Part shown: one piece after another, positions 1 to 6,770 of the stretch | Numbering within the stretch: the first letter of the stretch is position 1 | Layout of the letters: each line of letters opens with the position of its first letter | Virus record (IMG/VR): IMGVR_UViG_2563366946_000004 | DNA length: 6,770 nt | Source: a virus | Lineage: Duplodnaviria > Heunggongvirae > Uroviricota > Caudoviricetes | Reading direction: 5' to 3' (one strand) | Position numbers and translations under genes: made by a program | Notes under the pieces: generated by a model | The model's database searches: none | Seen by the model: only the letters and a program-made list of their open reading frames with translations | Told to the model about the DNA's origin: nothing

Positions 1-2875
1 ACCATCACGTCGGCAAACATCGACCGTCTGCGCTTTACCTTCGGTGTGCAGGCACTGGTGGAAACCACCTCAAAGGGGGACAGGAATCCATCGGAAGTCC
101 GCCTGCTGGTTCAGATACAACGTAACGGTGGCTGGGTGACGGAAAAAGACATCACCATTAAGGGTAAAACCACCTCGCAGTATCTGGCCTCAGTGGTGGT
201 GGATAACCTGCCGCCGCGCCCGTTTAATATCCGGATGCGCAGGATGACGCCGGACAGCACCACAGACCAGCTGCAGAACAAAACGCTCTGGTCGTCATAC
301 ACCGAAATCATCGATGTGAAACAGTGCTACCCGAACACGGCACTGGTCGGCGTGCAGGTGGACTCGGAGCAGTTCGGCAGCCAGCAGGTGAGCCGTAATT
401 ATCATCTGCGCGGGCGTATTCTGCAGGTGCCGTCGAACTATAACCCGCAGACGCGGCAATACAGCGGTATCTGGGACGGAACGTTTAAGCCAGCATACAG
501 CAACAACATGGCCTGGTGTCTGTGGGATATGCTGACCCATCCGCGCTACGGCATGGGGAAGCGTCTCGGTGCGGCGGATGTGGACAAATGGGCGCTGTAT
601 GTCATCGGCCAGAATTGCGACCAGTCGGTGCCGGATGGCTTTGGTGGCACGGAGCCGCGCATCACCTGTAATGCCTACCTGACCACACAGCGCAAGGCGT
701 GGGATGTTCTCAGTGATTTCTGCTCGGCGATGCGCTGTATGCCGGTATGGAACGGGCAGACGCTGACGTTCGTGCAGGACCGACCGTCGGATAAGGTGTG
801 GACCTATAACCGCAGTAATGTGGTGATGCCGGATGATGGTGCGCCGTTCCGCTACAGCTTCAGCGCCCTGAAAGACCGCCATAATGCTGTTGAGGTGAAC
901 TGGATTGACCCGGATAACGGCTGGGAGACGGCGACAGAGCTTGTGGAGGACACGCAGGCCATTGCCCGTTACGGTCGTAACGTCACGAAGATGGATGCCT
1001 TTGGCTGTACCAGCCGGGGGCAGGCACACCGCGCCGGGCTGTGGCTGATTAAAACGGAGCTGCTGGAAACGCAGACCGTGGACTTCAGCGTGGGTGCAGA
1101 AGGGCTTCGCCATGTACCGGGCGATGTCATTGAAATCTGTGATGATGACTATGCGGGGATCAGCATCGGCGGGCGCGTGCTGGCGGTGAACAACCAGACG
1201 CGGACACTGACGCTCGACCGTGAAATCACGCTGCCATCCTCCGGCACCACGCTGATAAGCCTGGCTGACGGACAGGGGAATCCGGTCAGCGTGGAGGTCC
1301 AGTCCGTCACCGACGGCGTGAAGGTAAAAGTGAGCCGTGTTCCTGACGGCGTTGCAGAATACAGCGTGTGGGGGCTGAAGCTGCCGACGCTGCGCCAGCG
1401 CCTGTTCCGCTGTGTGAGTATCCGTGAGAACGATGACGGCACGTATGCCATCACTGCCGTGCAGCATGTACCGGAAAAAGAGGCCATCGTGGATAACGGG
1501 GCGCACTTTGACGGCGACCAGAGCGGCACGGTGAATGGTGTCACGCCGCCAGCGGTGCAGCACCTGACTGCCGAAGTCACCGCAGACAGCGGGGAATATC
1601 AGGTGCTGGCGCGCTGGGACACGCCGAAGGTGGTGAAGGGGGTGAGCTTTATGCTTCGCCTGACCGTGGCAGCGGATGACGGCAGTGAGCGGCTGGTCAG
1701 CACGGCCCGGACGACGGAAACCACATACCGCTTCAGGCAACTGGCGCTGGGGAACTACAGGCTGACAGTCCGGGCGGTAAATGCGTGGGGGCAGCAGGGC
1801 GATCCGGCATCGGTATCGTTCCGGATTGCCGCACCGGCAGCGCCGTCGCAGATTGAGCTGACACCGGGGTATTTTCAGATAACCGCCACGCCGCATCTTG
1901 CGGTTTATGATCCGACGGTACAGTTTGAGTTCTGGTTCTCGGAAAAGCGGATTGCGGATATCAGGCAGGTTGAAACCACAGCACGCTATCTTGGCACGGC
2001 GCTGTACTGGATAGCCGCCAGTATCAATATCAAACCGGGCCATGATTATTATTTTTACATCCGCAGTGTGAACACCGTTGGCAAATCGGCATTTGTGGAG
2101 GCTGTTGGCCAGCCGAGTGATGATGCATCCGGCTATCTGAATTTTTTCAAAGGAGAGATAGGGAAAACCCATCTGGCTCAGGAGTTGTGGACGCAGATTG
2201 ATAACGGTCAGCTTGCGCCTGACCTGGCTGAAATCAGGACGTCCATTACGGGTGTCAGCAATGAAATCACGCAGACCGTCAATAAGAAACTGGAAGACCA
2301 GAGTGCAGCGATCCAGCAGATACAGAAGGTTCAGGTTGATACAAATAATAACCTGAACAGCATGTGGGCTGTGAAGCTGCAGCAGATGCAGGACGGACGC
2401 CTTTATATCGCGGGTATTGGTGCCGGTGTTGAGAATACTCCTGACGGTATGCAGAGTCAGGTGCTGCTGGCGGCGGACAGGATTGCGATGATTAATCCTG
2501 CGAATGGCAACACAAAGCCGATGTTTGTTGGGCAGGGCGATCAGATATTCATGAACGAAGTGTTCCTGAAATATCTGACGGCTCCCACCATTACCAGCGG
2601 TGGCAATCCCCCAACGTTTTCACTGACACCTGATGGTCGACTTTCTGCGAAAAATGCGGATATCAGCGGTAACGTGAACGCGAACTCCGGGACGCTCAAC
2701 AACGTCACGATTAATCAGAACTGTCGGATTCTGGGAAAACTGTCAGCTAACCAGATTGAAGGTGATATTGTCAAAACGGTGGGAAAAGCCTTTCCGAGAA
2801 ATGGCAGTTATGCCAGCGGTACAATAACGGTCACTGTGTACGATGACCAGGCTTTTGACCGTCAGATAGTAGTCC
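1..2875 (+). pseudogene. J: Lambda-like tail tip / host specificity protein J (central tail fibre), N-terminal and central part; 5' end lies upstream of the window; interrupted by an IS insertion at 2876
   Basis: Frame 1 is open from base 1 with no upstream stop in the window. The translation carries long stretches I recognise from lambda J (e.g. [78 protein letters not shown], fibronectin-III-like segment, [20 protein letters not shown]). J-derived coding ends at 2875 where the IS terminus TGAACC begins. The supplied ORF 46..3036 continues into the IS only as read-through. Confidence 0.9.
2873..2875. repeat. Target-site duplication (TCC), left copy, flanking the IS insertion in J
   Basis: TCC lies immediately outside the IS terminus at 2873-2875 and again at 4186-4188. 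A 3-bp duplication is typical of IS3-family elements. Confidence 0.75.
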
Positions 2876-2900
2876 TGAACCGCCCCGGGTTTCCTGGAGA
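2876..2900. repeat. IS terminal inverted repeat, right end (IRR)
   Basis: TGAACCGCCCCGGGTTTCCTGGAGA matches the reverse complement of 4161..4185 at 23 of 25 positions (AA/TT mismatch at positions 15-16). Confidence 0.8.
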
Positions 2901-2917
2901 GTGTTTTATCTGTGAAC

Positions 2918-3808
2918 TCAGGCTGCCAGATCATCGTTTCCGATGGAAGCATAATAAGCTTTTTCTGCTTCTGCCGGAGGAGTATGGCCCAGCCTTTCCA
3001 GCAATCGTCGATTGTTATACCAGTCCACCCACGTGAGTGTGGCCAGTTCCACTTCTGCACGGTTTTTCCAGCTCTTACGGTGTATTACCTCCGCTTTGTA
3101 AAGGCCATTGATGCTCTCCGCCATCGCGTTGTCATACGAGTCGCCTGTACTTCCTGTTGATGCCAGTAATCCGGCTTCCTTAAGCCGCTGTGTGTAGGCC
3201 AGCGATACATACTGAGAACCTTTATCACTGTGATGGACCGTGCCGGACGGTCGACGGGCCCATAACGCCTGCTCCAGTGCATCCAGCACGAATGTCGTTT
3301 CCATGGACGATGAGACCCGCCACCCCACGATGTATCCGGCAAACACATCAATGATGAACGCCACATAGACGAAGCCCCGCCATGTGCTGACGTAAGTAAA
3401 ATCAGCCACCCACAGCTGGTCAGGTCGTTCTGCCACGAACTGACGGTTTACGCGGTCGCCTGCGGCAACGGCTTTCCGGCTGATGGTCGTACGGACCTTT
3501 TTACCCCGGAGAACACCGGCAAGTCCCATAACCGCCATGAGACGTGCCACAGTGCATCTGGCCACTCTGATACCTTCCCGTAACAACTGACGCCAGACTT
3601 TACGCACACCGTATACCTTGTGATTTTCATCGTATACGCGCTGTATCTCTTTCTTCAGCCAGTCATCGCGCTGCGCACGGGCACTGCGTTTATCCGGATG
3701 ATGTCGCTGTTGCTGACAGTGGTAATACGTTGACGGGGCAATATGCAGTTCGCTGCATAGCGGTCCGACCCCGTACTGCTCACGCAGCTTATCCAGCAGT
3801 GGCATCAT
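2918..3808 (-). CDS. IS3-family transposase OrfB (DDE catalytic domain), normally expressed as an OrfAB fusion by -1 frameshifting
   Basis: Supplied 296-aa minus-strand ORF with DDE-type motifs ([31 protein letters not shown]). It overlaps the orfA stop in the -1 frame. The stop (TGA, complement of 2918-2920) sits just inside the IRR. Confidence 0.9.
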
Positions 3809-3815
3809 TTTTTCC
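3805..3815 (-). other. Programmed -1 ribosomal frameshift site (A6 slippery run) at the orfA/orfB overlap
   Basis: Minus-strand sequence ...CTGGAAAAAATGATGCCA...: orfA ends ...LWKK-TGA, and orfB continues MMPLLDK in the -1 frame. An A AAA AAN heptamer at the orfA/orfB overlap is the canonical IS3-family arrangement (established knowledge). Confidence 0.7.
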
Positions 3816-4131
3816 AGAGGCGGTCGAACTCCGCCTTCGCAAAATAAGCGGAAGCCTGGCGAAGGATATCGTTACTGCGGCGCAGTTCACGATTTTCACG
3901 TTCCAGCTCTTTCAGACGCTGACGTTCAGCGGTGGTGAGCCCTCCATCACCGCCCCCGGTATCCCGCTCATGCTGGCGAACCCAGACACGCAGAGTCTCC
4001 GGCGTACAGCCAATCTTTGGAGCAATGGAACAAATTGTCGCCCATTGTGAGTCATATTCGCTCTGACTTTCCAGAACCATACGAATCGCCCTCTGACGGA
4101 CTTCGGGGGAAAAACGAGTATTTTTAGTCAT
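3805..4131 (-). CDS. IS3-family transposase OrfA (HTH DNA-binding and leucine-zipper region)
   Basis: Supplied 108-aa minus-strand [59 protein letters not shown]...[39 protein letters not shown] is 54 bp inside the IS left end. Confidence 0.9.
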
Positions 4132-4160
4132 CCTGTTTACCTCTTTCTCAGGAAGTTTAG

Positions 4161-4185
4161 TCTCCAGGATTCCCGGGGCGGTTCA
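4161..4185. repeat. IS terminal inverted repeat, left end (IRL) of the minus-orientation copy
   Basis: Reverse complement of 4161..4185 is TGAACCGCCCCGGGAATCCTGGAGA, identical to the start of the second IS copy at 6451. Confidence 0.85.
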
Positions 4186-4188
4186 TCC
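4186..4188. repeat. Target-site duplication (TCC), right copy
   Basis: TCC immediately follows the IS end (GGTTCA at 4180-4185) and matches 2873-2875. Confidence 0.75.
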
Positions 4189-4490
4189 CCCCCGTTCTGT
4201 TTCGTGGGGGTAAGCATGAAAACTTCAACAGCAACAACCAACAGTCATACTGGTATTCAACCTGTAAGCTGCAGGTACTGAAGAACGGACAGGAAATCTT
4301 TCAGCAACCCGCGACGGATGTCAGCAGGGTATTTTCATCAGTCATTGATATGCCTGCCGGACACGGCCATGTCACCCTGACTTTCAATGTTTCTTCATAT
4401 GGTGCTAATAACTGGACGCCAACGACCAGTATCAGCGACCTTCTTGTTGTTGTGATGAAGAAATCTACAGCCGGTATCAGTATCAGTTGA
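4186..4490 (+). pseudogene. J: C-terminal ~100 codons of tail tip protein J, separated from the rest of the gene by the IS
   Basis: The frame starting at 4188 is open to TGA at 4488-4490 and encodes [100 protein letters not shown]. This resembles my recollection of the lambda J C-terminus (...DMPAG.G......[14 protein letters not shown]). With the IS and one TCC removed this frame is contiguous with the upstream J frame (...[15 protein letters not shown]...). Confidence 0.8.
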
Positions 4491-4507
4491 ATTTTATAAC
4501 CCAGATA

Positions 4508-4536
4508 CGGGCGCCAGAAATGGCGCCTTTTTTATT
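4508..4536 (+). terminator. Rho-independent terminator between J and stf
   Basis: Perfect 6-bp stem GGCGCC (4510-4515) / GGCGCC (4522-4527) with loop AGAAAT, followed directly by TTTTTT (4528-4533), 18 bp downstream of the J stop codon. Confidence 0.65.
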
Positions 4537-4548
4537 TGTGGAGTGAAT

Positions 4549-6453
4549 ATGGCAGTACAGATTTCAGGCGTGCTGAAAGACGGTGCAGGAAAACCGATAC
4601 AGAACTGCACCATTCAGCTCAAAGCAAAACGTAACAGCACCACGGTTGTGGTGAACACGGTGGCCTCAGAAAATCCGGATGAAGCCGGACGTTACAGCAT
4701 GGATGTCGAGTATGGCCAGTACAGCGTTATCCTGCTGGTTGAAGGTTTTCCGCCTTCACATGCCGGGGCCATCACCGTGTATGAGGATTCTAAGCCGGGG
4801 ACATTGAATGATTTTCTGGGCGCTGCAACAGAAGATGATGTTCGTCCGGAGGCACTGTATCGTTTTGAAAAGATGGTGGAAGAGGTGGCACGCAACGCTG
4901 AAGCCGCCTCTCAGAGCGCAGCGGCAGCAAAGAAATCAGAAACAGCAGCGGCATCGTCCAGGAATGCGGCGAAAACATCAGAGACGAATGCAGGTAACAG
5001 CGCGAAAGCGGCAGCTTCTTCAAAAACAGCCGCACAAAACGCAGCAACAGCGGCAGAACGTTCAGAGACAAATGCCCGTGCGTCAGAAGAAGCCTCCGCA
5101 GACAGTGAAGAGGCTTCCCGCCGTAATGCAGAGTCAGCCGCTGAAAATGCCGGAGTCGCCACCACAAAAGCGCGGGAGGCCGCAGCAGACGCAACAAAGG
5201 CCGGGCAGAAAAAGGATGAGGCTCTGTCGGCAGCGACACGGGCTGAAAAGGCGGCAGACCGCGCAGAAGTCGCAGCGGAAGTGACTGCAGAGCCCTATGC
5301 GAATATAGTGCCGCCGCTGCCTGATGTGTGGATACCGTTTAACGATTCACTGGATATGATTGCGGGTTTTTCTCCGGGCTATAAAAAAATAGCTATTGGT
5401 GACGATGTGGTTCAGGTCGCCAGTGATAAACAGGTTAATTTCAGTCGCGCATCAACGGCAACATATATCAACAAATCTGGCGAACTGAAAACGGCGGAAA
5501 TTAATGAGCCGCGATTTGAGTGTGATGGCCTGCTTATTGAGGGACAAAGAACGAACTACATGCTCAATTCGGAAAGTCCAGCCAGCTGGGGGAAGTCATC
5601 AAACATGGATGTGCCCGAAACCGGGACAGATAGTTTTGGTTTTACTTATGGAAAGTTTGTCTGCAACGATTCTCTGGTTGGGCAAACTTCGGCTATTAAT
5701 ATGGCATCAATTGCTGCAACAAAGTCAGTTGATGTCTCAGGCGATAACAAGTACGTGACAACCTCATGCCGTTTTAAAACAGAACGACAGGTAAGGTTAC
5801 GTATACGGTTTGATAAGTATGATGGTAGTGCAACAACTTTTCTTGGCGATGCGTACATTGATACGCAAACGCTTGAAATTAATATGACAGGTGGGGCTGC
5901 CGGCAGAATTACGGCACGAGTCAGGAAGGATAAGACCACAGGCTGGATTTTTGCAGAGGCAACGATTCAGGCAATTGATGGTGAGTTAAAAATAGGCTCT
6001 CAGATACAGTATTCTCCTGAGCGGGGTGGGGCAACAGTATCTGGTGACTATATTTATCTTGCCACCCCACAAGTAGAGAATGGGCCGTGTGTATCATCAT
6101 TTATTATTTCAGGAGGCAGCGCAACGACAAGAGCCAGTGATTTGGTTAGTATCCCTACCAGAAATAATCTTTATAAGTTACCATTTACTTTTTTACTTGA
6201 GATTCATAAAAACTGGGATATTGCACCAAACGCCGCACCCCGCGTGTGGGATATAGCAGCAGCCAATACCGGGCAATCAGCAATTGCAGCAATCAACAGA
6301 GGTAGTGGTAAGTTATATATGAGTCTGTCAAACCCTTCAGGCTTGTATGTTAATAGCGCAGCGACAGATGTATTTGCAGAGAAAACCACATTTGGATGTA
6401 TTGCAAAAGCTGATGGTCACTTTCATGTGGTGACAAATGGTAAAGCGGTTTGA
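4549..6453 (+). CDS. stf: Side tail fibre protein (Stf-like); lambda-Stf-like N-terminal anchor, Ala/Ser/Glu-rich repeats, distinct C-terminal domain; 3' end abuts the second IS and is probably truncated
   Basis: ATG at 4549 is preceded by GGAG (4540-4543) at 5-nt spacing. The supplied ORF starts at an upstream GTG (4543), but MAVQISGVLKDGAGKPIQNCTIQLKAKRNSTTVVVNTVASENPDEAGRYSMDVEYGQYSVILLVEGFPPSHAG matches the N-terminus of lambda Stf / Rac StfR as I recall them (MAVKISGVLKDGTGKPVQNCTIQLKA...). The stop TGA (6451-6453) is the first three bases of the IS terminus. Confidence 0.85.
   Translation: MAVQISGVLKDGAGKPIQNCTIQLKAKRNSTTVVVNTVASENPDEAGRYSMDVEYGQYSVILLVEGFPPSHAGAITVYEDSKPGTLNDFLGAATEDDVRPEALYRFEKMVEEVARNAEAASQSAAAAKKSETAAASSRNAAKTSETNAGNSAKAAASSKTAAQNAATAAERSETNARASEEASADSEEASRRNAESAAENAGVATTKAREAAADATKAGQKKDEALSAATRAEKAADRAEVAAEVTAEPYANIVPPLPDVWIPFNDSLDMIAGFSPGYKKIAIGDDVVQVASDKQVNFSRASTATYINKSGELKTAEINEPRFECDGLLIEGQRTNYMLNSESPASWGKSSNMDVPETGTDSFGFTYGKFVCNDSLVGQTSAINMASIAATKSVDVSGDNKYVTTSCRFKTERQVRLRIRFDKYDGSATTFLGDAYIDTQTLEINMTGGAAGRITARVRKDKTTGWIFAEATIQAIDGELKIGSQIQYSPERGGATVSGDYIYLATPQVENGPCVSSFIISGGSATTRASDLVSIPTRNNLYKLPFTFLLEIHKNWDIAPNAAPRVWDIAAANTGQSAIAAINRGSGKLYMSLSNPSGLYVNSAATDVFAEKTTFGCIAKADGHFHVVTNGKAV
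4897..5280 (+). repeat. Low-complexity Ala/Ser/Glu/Thr-rich tail-fibre repeat region inside stf
   Basis: The translation shows degenerate recurring units (SETNA..S..AA.., AAKTSETNAGNSAKAAASSKTAAQNAATAAERSETNARASEEASADSEEAS...). The DNA here is GC-rich and open in several frames on both strands, which produces the spurious overlapping ORFs 4808..5284(+), 4790..5239(-) and 4911..5165(-). Confidence 0.7.
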
Positions 6454-6475
6454 ACCGCCCCGGGAATCCTGGAGA
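6451..6475. repeat. IRL of the second IS copy
   Basis: TGAACCGCCCCGGGAATCCTGGAGA, identical to the IRL of the first copy. Confidence 0.85.
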
Positions 6476-6504
6476 CTAAACTTCCTGAGAAAGAGGTAAA
6501 CAGG

Positions 6505-6770
6505 ATGACTAAAAATACTCGTTTTTCCCCCGAAGTCCGTCAGAGGGCGATTCGTATGGTTCTGGAAAGTCAGAGCGAATATGACTCACAATGGGCGACA
6601 ATTTGTTCCATTGCTCCAAAGATTGGCTGTACGCCGGAGACTCTGCGTGTCTGGGTTCGCCAGCATGAGCGGGATACCGGGGGCGGTGATGGAGGGCTCA
6701 CCACCGCTGAACGTCAGCGTCTGAAAGAGCTGGAACGTGAAAATCGTGAACTGCGCCGCAGTAACGATAT
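6505..6770 (+). CDS. IS3-family transposase OrfA of the second IS copy, 3'-partial (window ends)
   Basis: ATG at 6505, 54 bp inside the IS end. Translation [30 protein letters not shown]... is identical to orfA of the first copy over the visible part. Confidence 0.9.
   Translation, partial: MTKNTRFSPEVRQRAIRMVLESQSEYDSQWATICSIAPKIGCTPETLRVWVRQHERDTGGGDGGLTTAERQRLKELERENRELRRSND

Follow-up and report, generated by a model that had tools for sequence, protein, structure and literature searches.

IS3-family elements move by a copy-out-paste-in route. Within this family, IS629 is reported to leave target-site duplications of 3-4 bp, and prophages are the commonest class of location, with 62% of its sites (PMC3271280). 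The C-terminal Ig-like domain of lambda gpJ inserts its loops L1-L4 into LamB (PMC11101478), and LamB is the native receptor of phage 21 as well (PMC11336670). A clean insertion of an IS629-type element is textbook behaviour of insertion sequences and an already known kind of event. The stretch of DNA analysed here (the window, 6,770 nucleotides) very probably records such an event: a simple and recent IS insertion that interrupts gene J of a phage-21-like lambdoid prophage at codon 1061 and deprives J of its receptor-binding tip. The window contains the following features.

1..2875, plus strand: 5' part of J, the tail tip attachment gene; codons 103-1060 and base 1 of codon 1061 (the window opens within J)
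2873..2875: TCC, left copy of the target-site duplication; empty-site alleles have one TCC
2875..3036, plus strand: continuation of the truncated J frame into the IS; 53 unrelated residues (LNRPGF...SPPT) before the frame stops
2876..4185, minus strand: complete IS3-family element assigned to the IS629/IS1203/IS3411 group; 1310 bp, transposase genes antisense to J
2876..2900: right terminal inverted repeat (IRR) of the J-borne IS; 23 of 25 positions agree with the other end
2918..3808, minus strand: orfB; 296 aa, HTH_21 and rve (DDE integrase core); shares 4 nt with orfA, in the -1 frame
3734..3850, minus strand: ALIL pseudoknot (Rfam RF01497), a programmed -1 frameshift signal at the orfA/orfB overlap, beside an A6 slippery run
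3805..4131, minus strand: orfA; 108 aa, HTH_Tnp_1
4161..4185: left terminal inverted repeat (IRL) of the J-borne IS
4186..4188: TCC, right copy of the target-site duplication; empty-site alleles have one TCC
4189..4490, plus strand: orphaned 3' part of J; runs from the second base of codon 1061 to the stop after codon 1160 and covers the greater part of the Ig-like receptor-binding domain
4549..6453, plus strand: side-tail-fibre-like gene with phage_tail_N and spike fibre domain; 634 of 686 codons remain before the break, and the second IS supplies the TGA
6451..6770, plus strand: second copy of the element, opposite in orientation to the J-borne one; continues past the end of the window

The ends of the J-borne element read TGAACCGCCCCGGG... 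and ...CCCGGGGCGGTTCA; they are of the 5'-TG...CA-3' type and form imperfect inverted repeats. OrfB scores 314.6 bits against the NCBIfam model transpos_IS3, and an Rfam search returned the ALIL pseudoknot at full length with 120.2 bits (gathering score 50). The element resembles IS629/IS1203/IS3411 of O157:H7 and Shigella in its 1310 bp, its TG...CA ends with imperfect inverted repeats, its orfA/orfB pair with a programmed -1 frameshift and ALIL pseudoknot, its 3-bp target duplication and its target, a prophage gene. Compared to the O157:H7 IS1203-type copy, however, it is a variant: it is 96.2% identical over 1310 bp to a copy of strain SS17 annotated as 'IS3-like element IS1203 family' and carries a private cluster of five substitutions at IS positions 93-102 (OrfA V16I). 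Hundreds of E. coli copies are 99.5-99.6% identical to it, and none of the E. coli copies searched reached 100%, the top match being 99.6%. The close relatives are annotated at NCBI merely as 'IS3 family transposase', and the OrfB protein is identical to that of the copy in strain FDAARGOS_1301. Length, ends, two overlapping reading frames, duplication and an identity above roughly 90-95% place the element, as judged from its sequence, in the IS629/IS1203/IS3411 group, at group level rather than under one named isoform, in agreement with its initial designation as IS629-type. The intact reading frames and ends and the presence of two identical copies in the window are suggestive, and suggestive only, of transposition competence.

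The first-pass annotation had described a 1310-bp IS flanked by a TCC direct repeat and had stated that removal of the IS and one TCC yields a continuous J frame up to 4490. Both statements were borne out. The element occupies 2876-4185 between TCC at 2873-2875 and 4186-4188; at the excised junction, GTC (Val, codon 1060) at 2872-2874 is followed by CCC (Pro), composed of C2875, C4189 and C4190, and the frame beyond is free of stops through ...DMPAGHGH... to the TGA at 4488-4490. Frame restoration by itself is weak evidence of a clean insertion because the frame survives whether the IS is removed alone or together with one TCC (a prior of 1 in 3); the prior for a 3-bp flank match by chance is 1 in 64. 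The decisive test is the comparison with empty sites. The alignment with IS-free alleles that had been proposed along with the original description is collinear and gapless: over its 445 nt, the excised junction shows 100% identity to unbroken J alleles, both in numerous complete E. coli genomes, among them the ExPEC prophages of CFT073, UTI89 and Nissle 1917, and in phages 21, ev017, mEp460 (mEp460_4F5) and PhiR57_1. In all, 269 records in complete genomes match this empty-site junction at >=99% identity. On the FDAARGOS_1301 locus (L001), where an intact J spans 2695..6177, the 5' part of J (window 1..2875) aligns to 3001..5875 and window 4186..6450 to 5873..8137, so that the two blocks share exactly 3 bp, TCC. 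Since the IS-free alleles read GTAG-TCC-CCCCGTT with a single TCC, the repeat is a true target-site duplication. Nothing contradicts insertion itself, which the alignments confirm. In the proposed course of events, one active-looking copy of the group would have transposed into codon 1061 by copy-out-paste-in, and fill-in of the staggered target cut would have duplicated TCC with no other change.

According to Pfam, J has the same domain order as lambda gpJ (PDB 8iyk, 8xcj), with hub domains, two FNIII/Ig domains, the tail tip fibre region and, last, the C-terminal Ig-like receptor-binding domain. The 5' part contains FNIII-A_GpJ, Phage-tail_3, Ig_J, Ig_J_second, Phage_Tail_Tip and the start of Ig_GpJ_C. 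The latter is split by the IS, with profile positions 17-39 before the element and 41-135 of 135 after it (E = 2.7e-24 for the orphaned 3' part). A loss of about 100 C-terminal residues had been estimated at first; the number cut off is exactly 100 (1061-1160), about 70% of the receptor-binding domain. Over its 1058 visible residues, the restored protein matches J of the phages ev017 and PhiR57_1 at 100% and that of phage 21 at 99.9% identity, from all of which the window gene differs in being broken at codon 1061. The orphaned 3' part taken alone is 100% identical to J of phage 21 and ev017. All 28 nucleotide differences between restored J and the intact J of FDAARGOS_1301 are synonymous (0 nonsynonymous). 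The view that J was intact at the time of insertion and has undergone no further decay was upheld by this identity to IS-free alleles. The 5' part now codes for residues 1-1060 followed by 53 junk residues, and the last 100 residues have neither a promoter nor a start codon.

The lost region is homologous to the solved receptor-binding domain of lambda gpJ (entries 8xcj, 8iyk), though distantly similar only (E = 1e-26 over 137 aa). Its identity to the receptor-binding domain of phage 21 is 100%. LamB is a plausible receptor in view of this match to phage 21, a native LamB user, and the lambda structure points in the same direction. The top PDB match is A8 gpJ (PDB 9wca), an engineered lambda gpJ chimera of the same fold family that shares 112 of the 138 C-terminal residues (81%) but recognises OmpC (bioRxiv 10.1101/2022.09.30.509847); OmpC was downgraded as a candidate, the domain in the window being that of a phage which natively uses LamB. 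Without their receptor-binding tip, any tails of this prophage should be incapable of irreversible receptor binding and of triggering DNA ejection, and it is sound to expect that any particles would not adsorb.

A second IS copy, absent from the first-pass annotation, begins at 6451 and truncates the side tail fibre gene. It is identical to the first copy at 320 of 320 bases, the five private substitutions included. Beyond the window, 52 further codons of the side tail fibre gene are expected, beginning AATGAAGTTTATTG... after the 3-4 bp duplication of the second IS. The consequence for adsorption may be moot if the prophage is not otherwise inducible. The damage to the side tail fibre gene is independent of that to J.

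For the distribution of the insertion, 160-nt sequences spanning the junction were compared with 5,426 complete E. coli genomes, and the GTDB representatives and JGI metagenome contigs were scanned for exact 27-mers; the source genome is in none of these collections. The filled J junction is contiguous in none of the 5,426 complete genomes, and the 27-mer scans detected it neither in the GTDB representatives nor in the JGI contigs. The sole full-coverage match, H81, consists of two separate pieces around a different insertion site. Likewise, a 160-nt query spanning the junction of the second copy at 6450/6451 has no match in the 5,426 genomes. The prophage hosting the IS is of the ExPEC (B2-type) kind, in contrast to the Sp prophages of O157, and an O157:H7 Sp prophage origin, a guess from the IS type, was rejected as the locus matches ExPEC/APEC prophages. 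Prophages with this type of tail module adjoin sitABCD in HM670 and FDAARGOS_1301, the two IS-bearing relatives with a visible flank.

Only three loci with an IS in the tail module could be identified among the complete genomes (HM670, APEC E12053 and FDAARGOS_1301), each at a different site, namely the window equivalents of ~2587-2589 and ~4398-4400 and a position downstream of the tail fibre gene. They share with the window the same element (the FDAARGOS_1301 copy is 99.5% identical), a location in J or its neighbourhood and duplications of 3-4 bp (ACC, TAT and ATAA/TAA), but differ in site and orientation, and none has the window's junction. At least two other ExPEC/APEC strains thus have independent insertions of this IS in J. 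No claim of an insertion hot spot is made for J, since by rough count the hits are no more numerous than chance and the known prophage bias would produce.

A recent date had originally been argued from the absence of decay in J. The date itself probably stands, but that argument is a weak clock: the ~3 kb of unmutated sequence cannot date the event, and neutral DNA of this length can stay free of mutations for thousands of years. The better argument is the missing junction in complete genomes, GTDB representatives and JGI contigs, because of which the insertion is strain-private and probably recent. An old insertion, with J as a long-standing pseudogene yet to acquire further lesions, would be compatible with such slow decay and with a source lineage not represented in the searched collections, but we consider it unlikely: against it stand the failure to find the junction in any of these collections, a protein sequence without nonsynonymous changes and 100% identical to J of viable phages, and the identity of the two IS copies over 320 nt with private substitutions common to both. 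An IS-mediated rearrangement is highly improbable. Identical inverted copies do bracket 4186..6450, which could mark a compound transposon or an inversion or deletion by recombination between them, and the right end of the second copy, with its duplication and far flank, lies beyond the window. The first copy, however, lies between matching TCC repeats of its own, and its flanks are collinear with IS-free alleles, in the same orientation, and map to contiguous L001 3001..8137. Had the copies recombined to give an inversion, the TCC pair would have been parted and the 2.3-kb segment flipped. An inversion or compound-transposon origin of the first copy was rejected on these grounds.

It is also conceivable that the insertion represents a reversible or selected 'off' state, in which precise excision by transposase and IEE restores J, or in which a double loss of adsorption was selected to disarm the prophage. 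Precise excision of IS629/IS1203v has been documented (bioRxiv 10.1101/2023.06.07.543989), and with the duplication intact and the flanks undamaged it would regenerate wild-type J. Moreover, the hits fall on both the receptor-binding domain of J and the C-terminus of the tail fibre, and other strains carry independent insertions in the same region of J. Three IS-bearing loci at three different sites nevertheless resemble random insertion combined with the known prophage bias and show no sign of selection, and excision would depend on the source strain having IEE; an 'off' state is very unlikely. The same low probability is given to the idea that sister IS copies disabled both adsorption devices through selection for a disarmed tail, through a target preference for this region or as an IS-based switch that precise excision could reset.

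For annotation, J should be entered as one pseudogene that an IS has split in two, rather than as a pair of hypothetical genes, and the prophage in the window should be scored as tail-defective. The locus adds a further example of IS629-group elements preferentially inactivating structural genes of prophages. Its private junctions at 2875/2876 and 6450/6451 are handy strain-typing markers, comparable to the IS629 sites used for O157:H7.

The J gene, which codes for the tail tip attachment protein of a lambda-like prophage and extends beyond the start of the window, is interrupted by an insertion sequence (IS copy 1). The comparisons confirm, at sequence level, a textbook strain-private IS629-group insertion in a phage-21-type J, together with a sister insertion (IS copy 2) in the neighbouring tail fibre gene. 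Both the IS and J have database entries with 99.5% identity or more, and events of this kind are well described. The relevant features are as follows.

46..3036, plus strand: open reading frame of J running into the IS
2873-2875 and 4186-4188: TCC direct repeat, immediately outside both ends of copy 1
2876..4185: IS copy 1, 1310 bp, transposase genes on the minus strand
4131..3805, minus strand: orfA, 108 aa, HTH_Tnp_1
3808..2918, minus strand: orfB, 296 aa, HTH_21 and rve
3734..3850, minus strand: ALIL pseudoknot (Rfam), full-length, 120 bits against a gathering score of 50
4549-6453, plus strand: side-tail-fibre-like gene, phage_tail_N and spike fibre domain, 686 aa uncut
6451-6770, plus strand: IS copy 2, inverted relative to copy 1 and running off the window, its right end and duplication outside
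4084-4093 (copy 1) and 6543-6552 (copy 2): substitution cluster

The first-pass annotation had proposed that removal of the IS and one TCC restores J, and its coordinates and residues (IS, TCC, Val/Pro join, stop at 4490) are all correct. Deletion of 2876..4188 fuses C2875, which follows GTC (Val) at 2872-2874, with CC4189-4190 to a Pro codon, and the frame stays open to TGA at 4488-4490, the protein ending ...DMPAGHGH...[16 protein letters not shown]. Neither frame restoration (1 in 3 by chance) nor a matching 3-bp flank (1 in 64) is strong evidence alone, so the empty site was tested directly with a 445-nt excised junction built from 2650-2875 and 4189-4408. This query is 100% identical, collinear and gapless to intact genes annotated 'gpJ: phage attachment tail tip protein J' in many complete genomes, including CFT073, UTI89, Nissle 1917, ATCC 25922, DSM 30083, APEC O1 and S88, and to phage 21, ev017, mEp460_4F5 and PhiR57_1; 269 records match at ≥99% identity. 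Empty-site alleles carry a single TCC (...GTAG TCC CCCCGTT...). Aligned to the FDAARGOS_1301 locus (L001), the stretch before the IS (window 1..2875) lies on 3001..5875 and the stretch after it (window 4186..6450) on 5873..8137, an overlap of exactly the TCC. The single TCC and this overlap indicate a true 3-bp target-site duplication, as proposed, and a simple insertion in which flanking DNA was neither lost nor rearranged. The insertion target is where a C7 homopolymer begins (GTC CCC CCC GTT in intact alleles; 2873-2875 and 4186-4195) and falls on the boundary of the receptor-binding domain; all 100% identical alleles conserve the run.

The interrupted frame contains FNIII-A_GpJ, Phage-tail_3, Ig_J, Ig_J_second and Phage_Tail_Tip, the full lambda gpJ series. 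The window starts at J codon 103 and Val1060 is the last intact codon of 1160, so that exactly 100 residues are severed (about 100 had been estimated); truncated J continues for 53 unrelated residues into the IS. Compared over its 1058 visible residues, excised J shows 100.0% identity to the J proteins of ev017 and PhiR57_1, both isolated phages, and 99.9% identity to the phage 21 protein. The 28 nucleotide differences from the intact FDAARGOS_1301 allele are all synonymous and all lie in the first 1390 nt, while the remaining 3.7 kb hold one mismatch, at about 6156. This identity and the synonymous-only differences show that J coded for a proven-functional protein until the insertion and has not decayed since, in agreement with the earlier reading. 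The pattern in window 1-1390 suggests that the 5' part of J is mosaic or recombinant and has been under strong purifying selection. A 625-aa open reading frame antisense to J (295-2172, minus strand), which has neither domain nor homology support, is probably spurious in GC-rich coding sequence.

The severed residues comprise most of Ig_GpJ_C, the C-terminal receptor-binding domain, with profile positions 17-39 upstream of the IS and 41-135, out of 135, downstream. In lambda, four bottom loops of this Ig-like domain insert into LamB, and this binding sets off a cascade of conformational changes by which the tail is opened (PMC11101478). The C-terminal 138 residues match lambda gpJ structures 8iyk and 8xcj (E about 1e-26) and 'A8 gpJ' (9wca; E = 1e-71, 112/138 identical). 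OmpC is bound by A8, which is an engineered chimera (bioRxiv 10.1101/2022.09.30.509847); the domain in the window, by contrast, is identical to the one in phage 21, which natively uses LamB and can use OmpC only after one J mutation (PMC11336670). Loss of about 70% of the Ig-like domain should abolish receptor binding.

The termini of copy 1, TGAACCGCCCCGGG... and ...CCCGGGGCGGTTCA, form imperfect inverted repeats matching at 23 of the first 25 positions. OrfB scores 314.6 bits against the NCBIfam transpos_IS3 model, and orfA and orfB have 4 nt in common, at an A6 run; the ALIL pseudoknot corresponds to the IS3411/IS629-type programmed -1 frameshift signal. The identity of copy 1 is 96.2% to a copy from O157:H7 with the annotation 'IS3-like element IS1203 family' and rises to 99.5-99.6% for very many copies on chromosomes and plasmids of E. 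coli, Shigella and Salmonella. IS1203 and IS3411 are regarded as IS629 isoforms, and IS629 reportedly makes 3-4 bp duplications in targets without sequence specificity (PMC3271280). Given the domains, frameshift signal, identities and isoform status, 'IS629-type' is a fair label at group level.

The suggestion of a recent event, initially drawn from the lack of decay, stands on other ground: about 3 kb may stay free of decay for a long time, and strain-private distribution is the stronger argument. None of 5,426 complete E. coli genomes carries the left junction of copy 1 as a contiguous match, the sole full-coverage match being two pieces around another insertion, and neither the GTDB species representatives nor the JGI metagenome contigs contain the exact junction 27-mer. 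If the IS were excised precisely, the intact duplication and flanks would give back a wild-type J; for IS629/IS1203v, precise excision with transposase and IEE has been documented (bioRxiv 10.1101/2023.06.07.543989).

Three further complete genomes (ExPEC/APEC strains) carry independent insertions of the same IS in this prophage tail module, two of them inside J at different sites.

Other insertions of the same IS (L001-L003, the respective loci)
HM670: in J, about window 2587-2589, plus strand, duplication ACC, IS at L003 5590-6899
APEC E12053: in J, about window 4398-4400, minus strand, duplication TAT, IS at L002 6088-7397
FDAARGOS_1301: downstream of the tail fibre genes, minus strand, duplication ATAA/TAA, IS at L001 8585-9894

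With only three IS-bearing loci against 269 empty-site records (≥99% identity), and with the known bias of IS629 towards prophages, which hold 62% of its sites in O157:H7 (PMC3271280), the rate is not clearly above chance and J is not claimed as an insertion hot spot.

Copy 2, which the first-pass annotation of this insertion did not mention, is identical to copy 1 at 320/320 bases and cuts the side-tail-fibre-like gene after codon 634/686, the first IS bases, TGA, providing a stop codon; its junction is absent from the complete E. coli genomes searched. An inversion between the copies is ruled out by the intervening segment (4186..6450), which aligns collinearly to IS-free alleles and differs at one position in 2265 nt. 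At IS positions 93-102 the two copies differ from the common variant by the same five closely spaced, private substitutions (CAGAGGGCGATT, commonly CAACGGGCAGTC), and are thereby sister copies that arose by recent activity within the source genome. Four of the altered codons are silent and the fifth changes OrfA (V16I); the cluster resembles a short patch acquired by recombination from a diverged isoform. No 100% identical IS copy occurs in 5,426 complete genomes. In the NCBI annotation the tail fibre gene is divided between an N-terminal 'pseudo' piece and a 'phage head spike fiber domain' CDS of its own, probably an annotation artefact, as L001 has one uninterrupted 686-aa frame (L001 6236-8296, L003 7549-9609; equivalent to window 4549 onward). 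The interval from the J stop to the start of the tail fibre gene contains a GC-rich hairpin with a T run behind it (GGGCGCCAGAAATGGCGCCTTTTTTATTT, 4499-4535), which looks like an intrinsic terminator.
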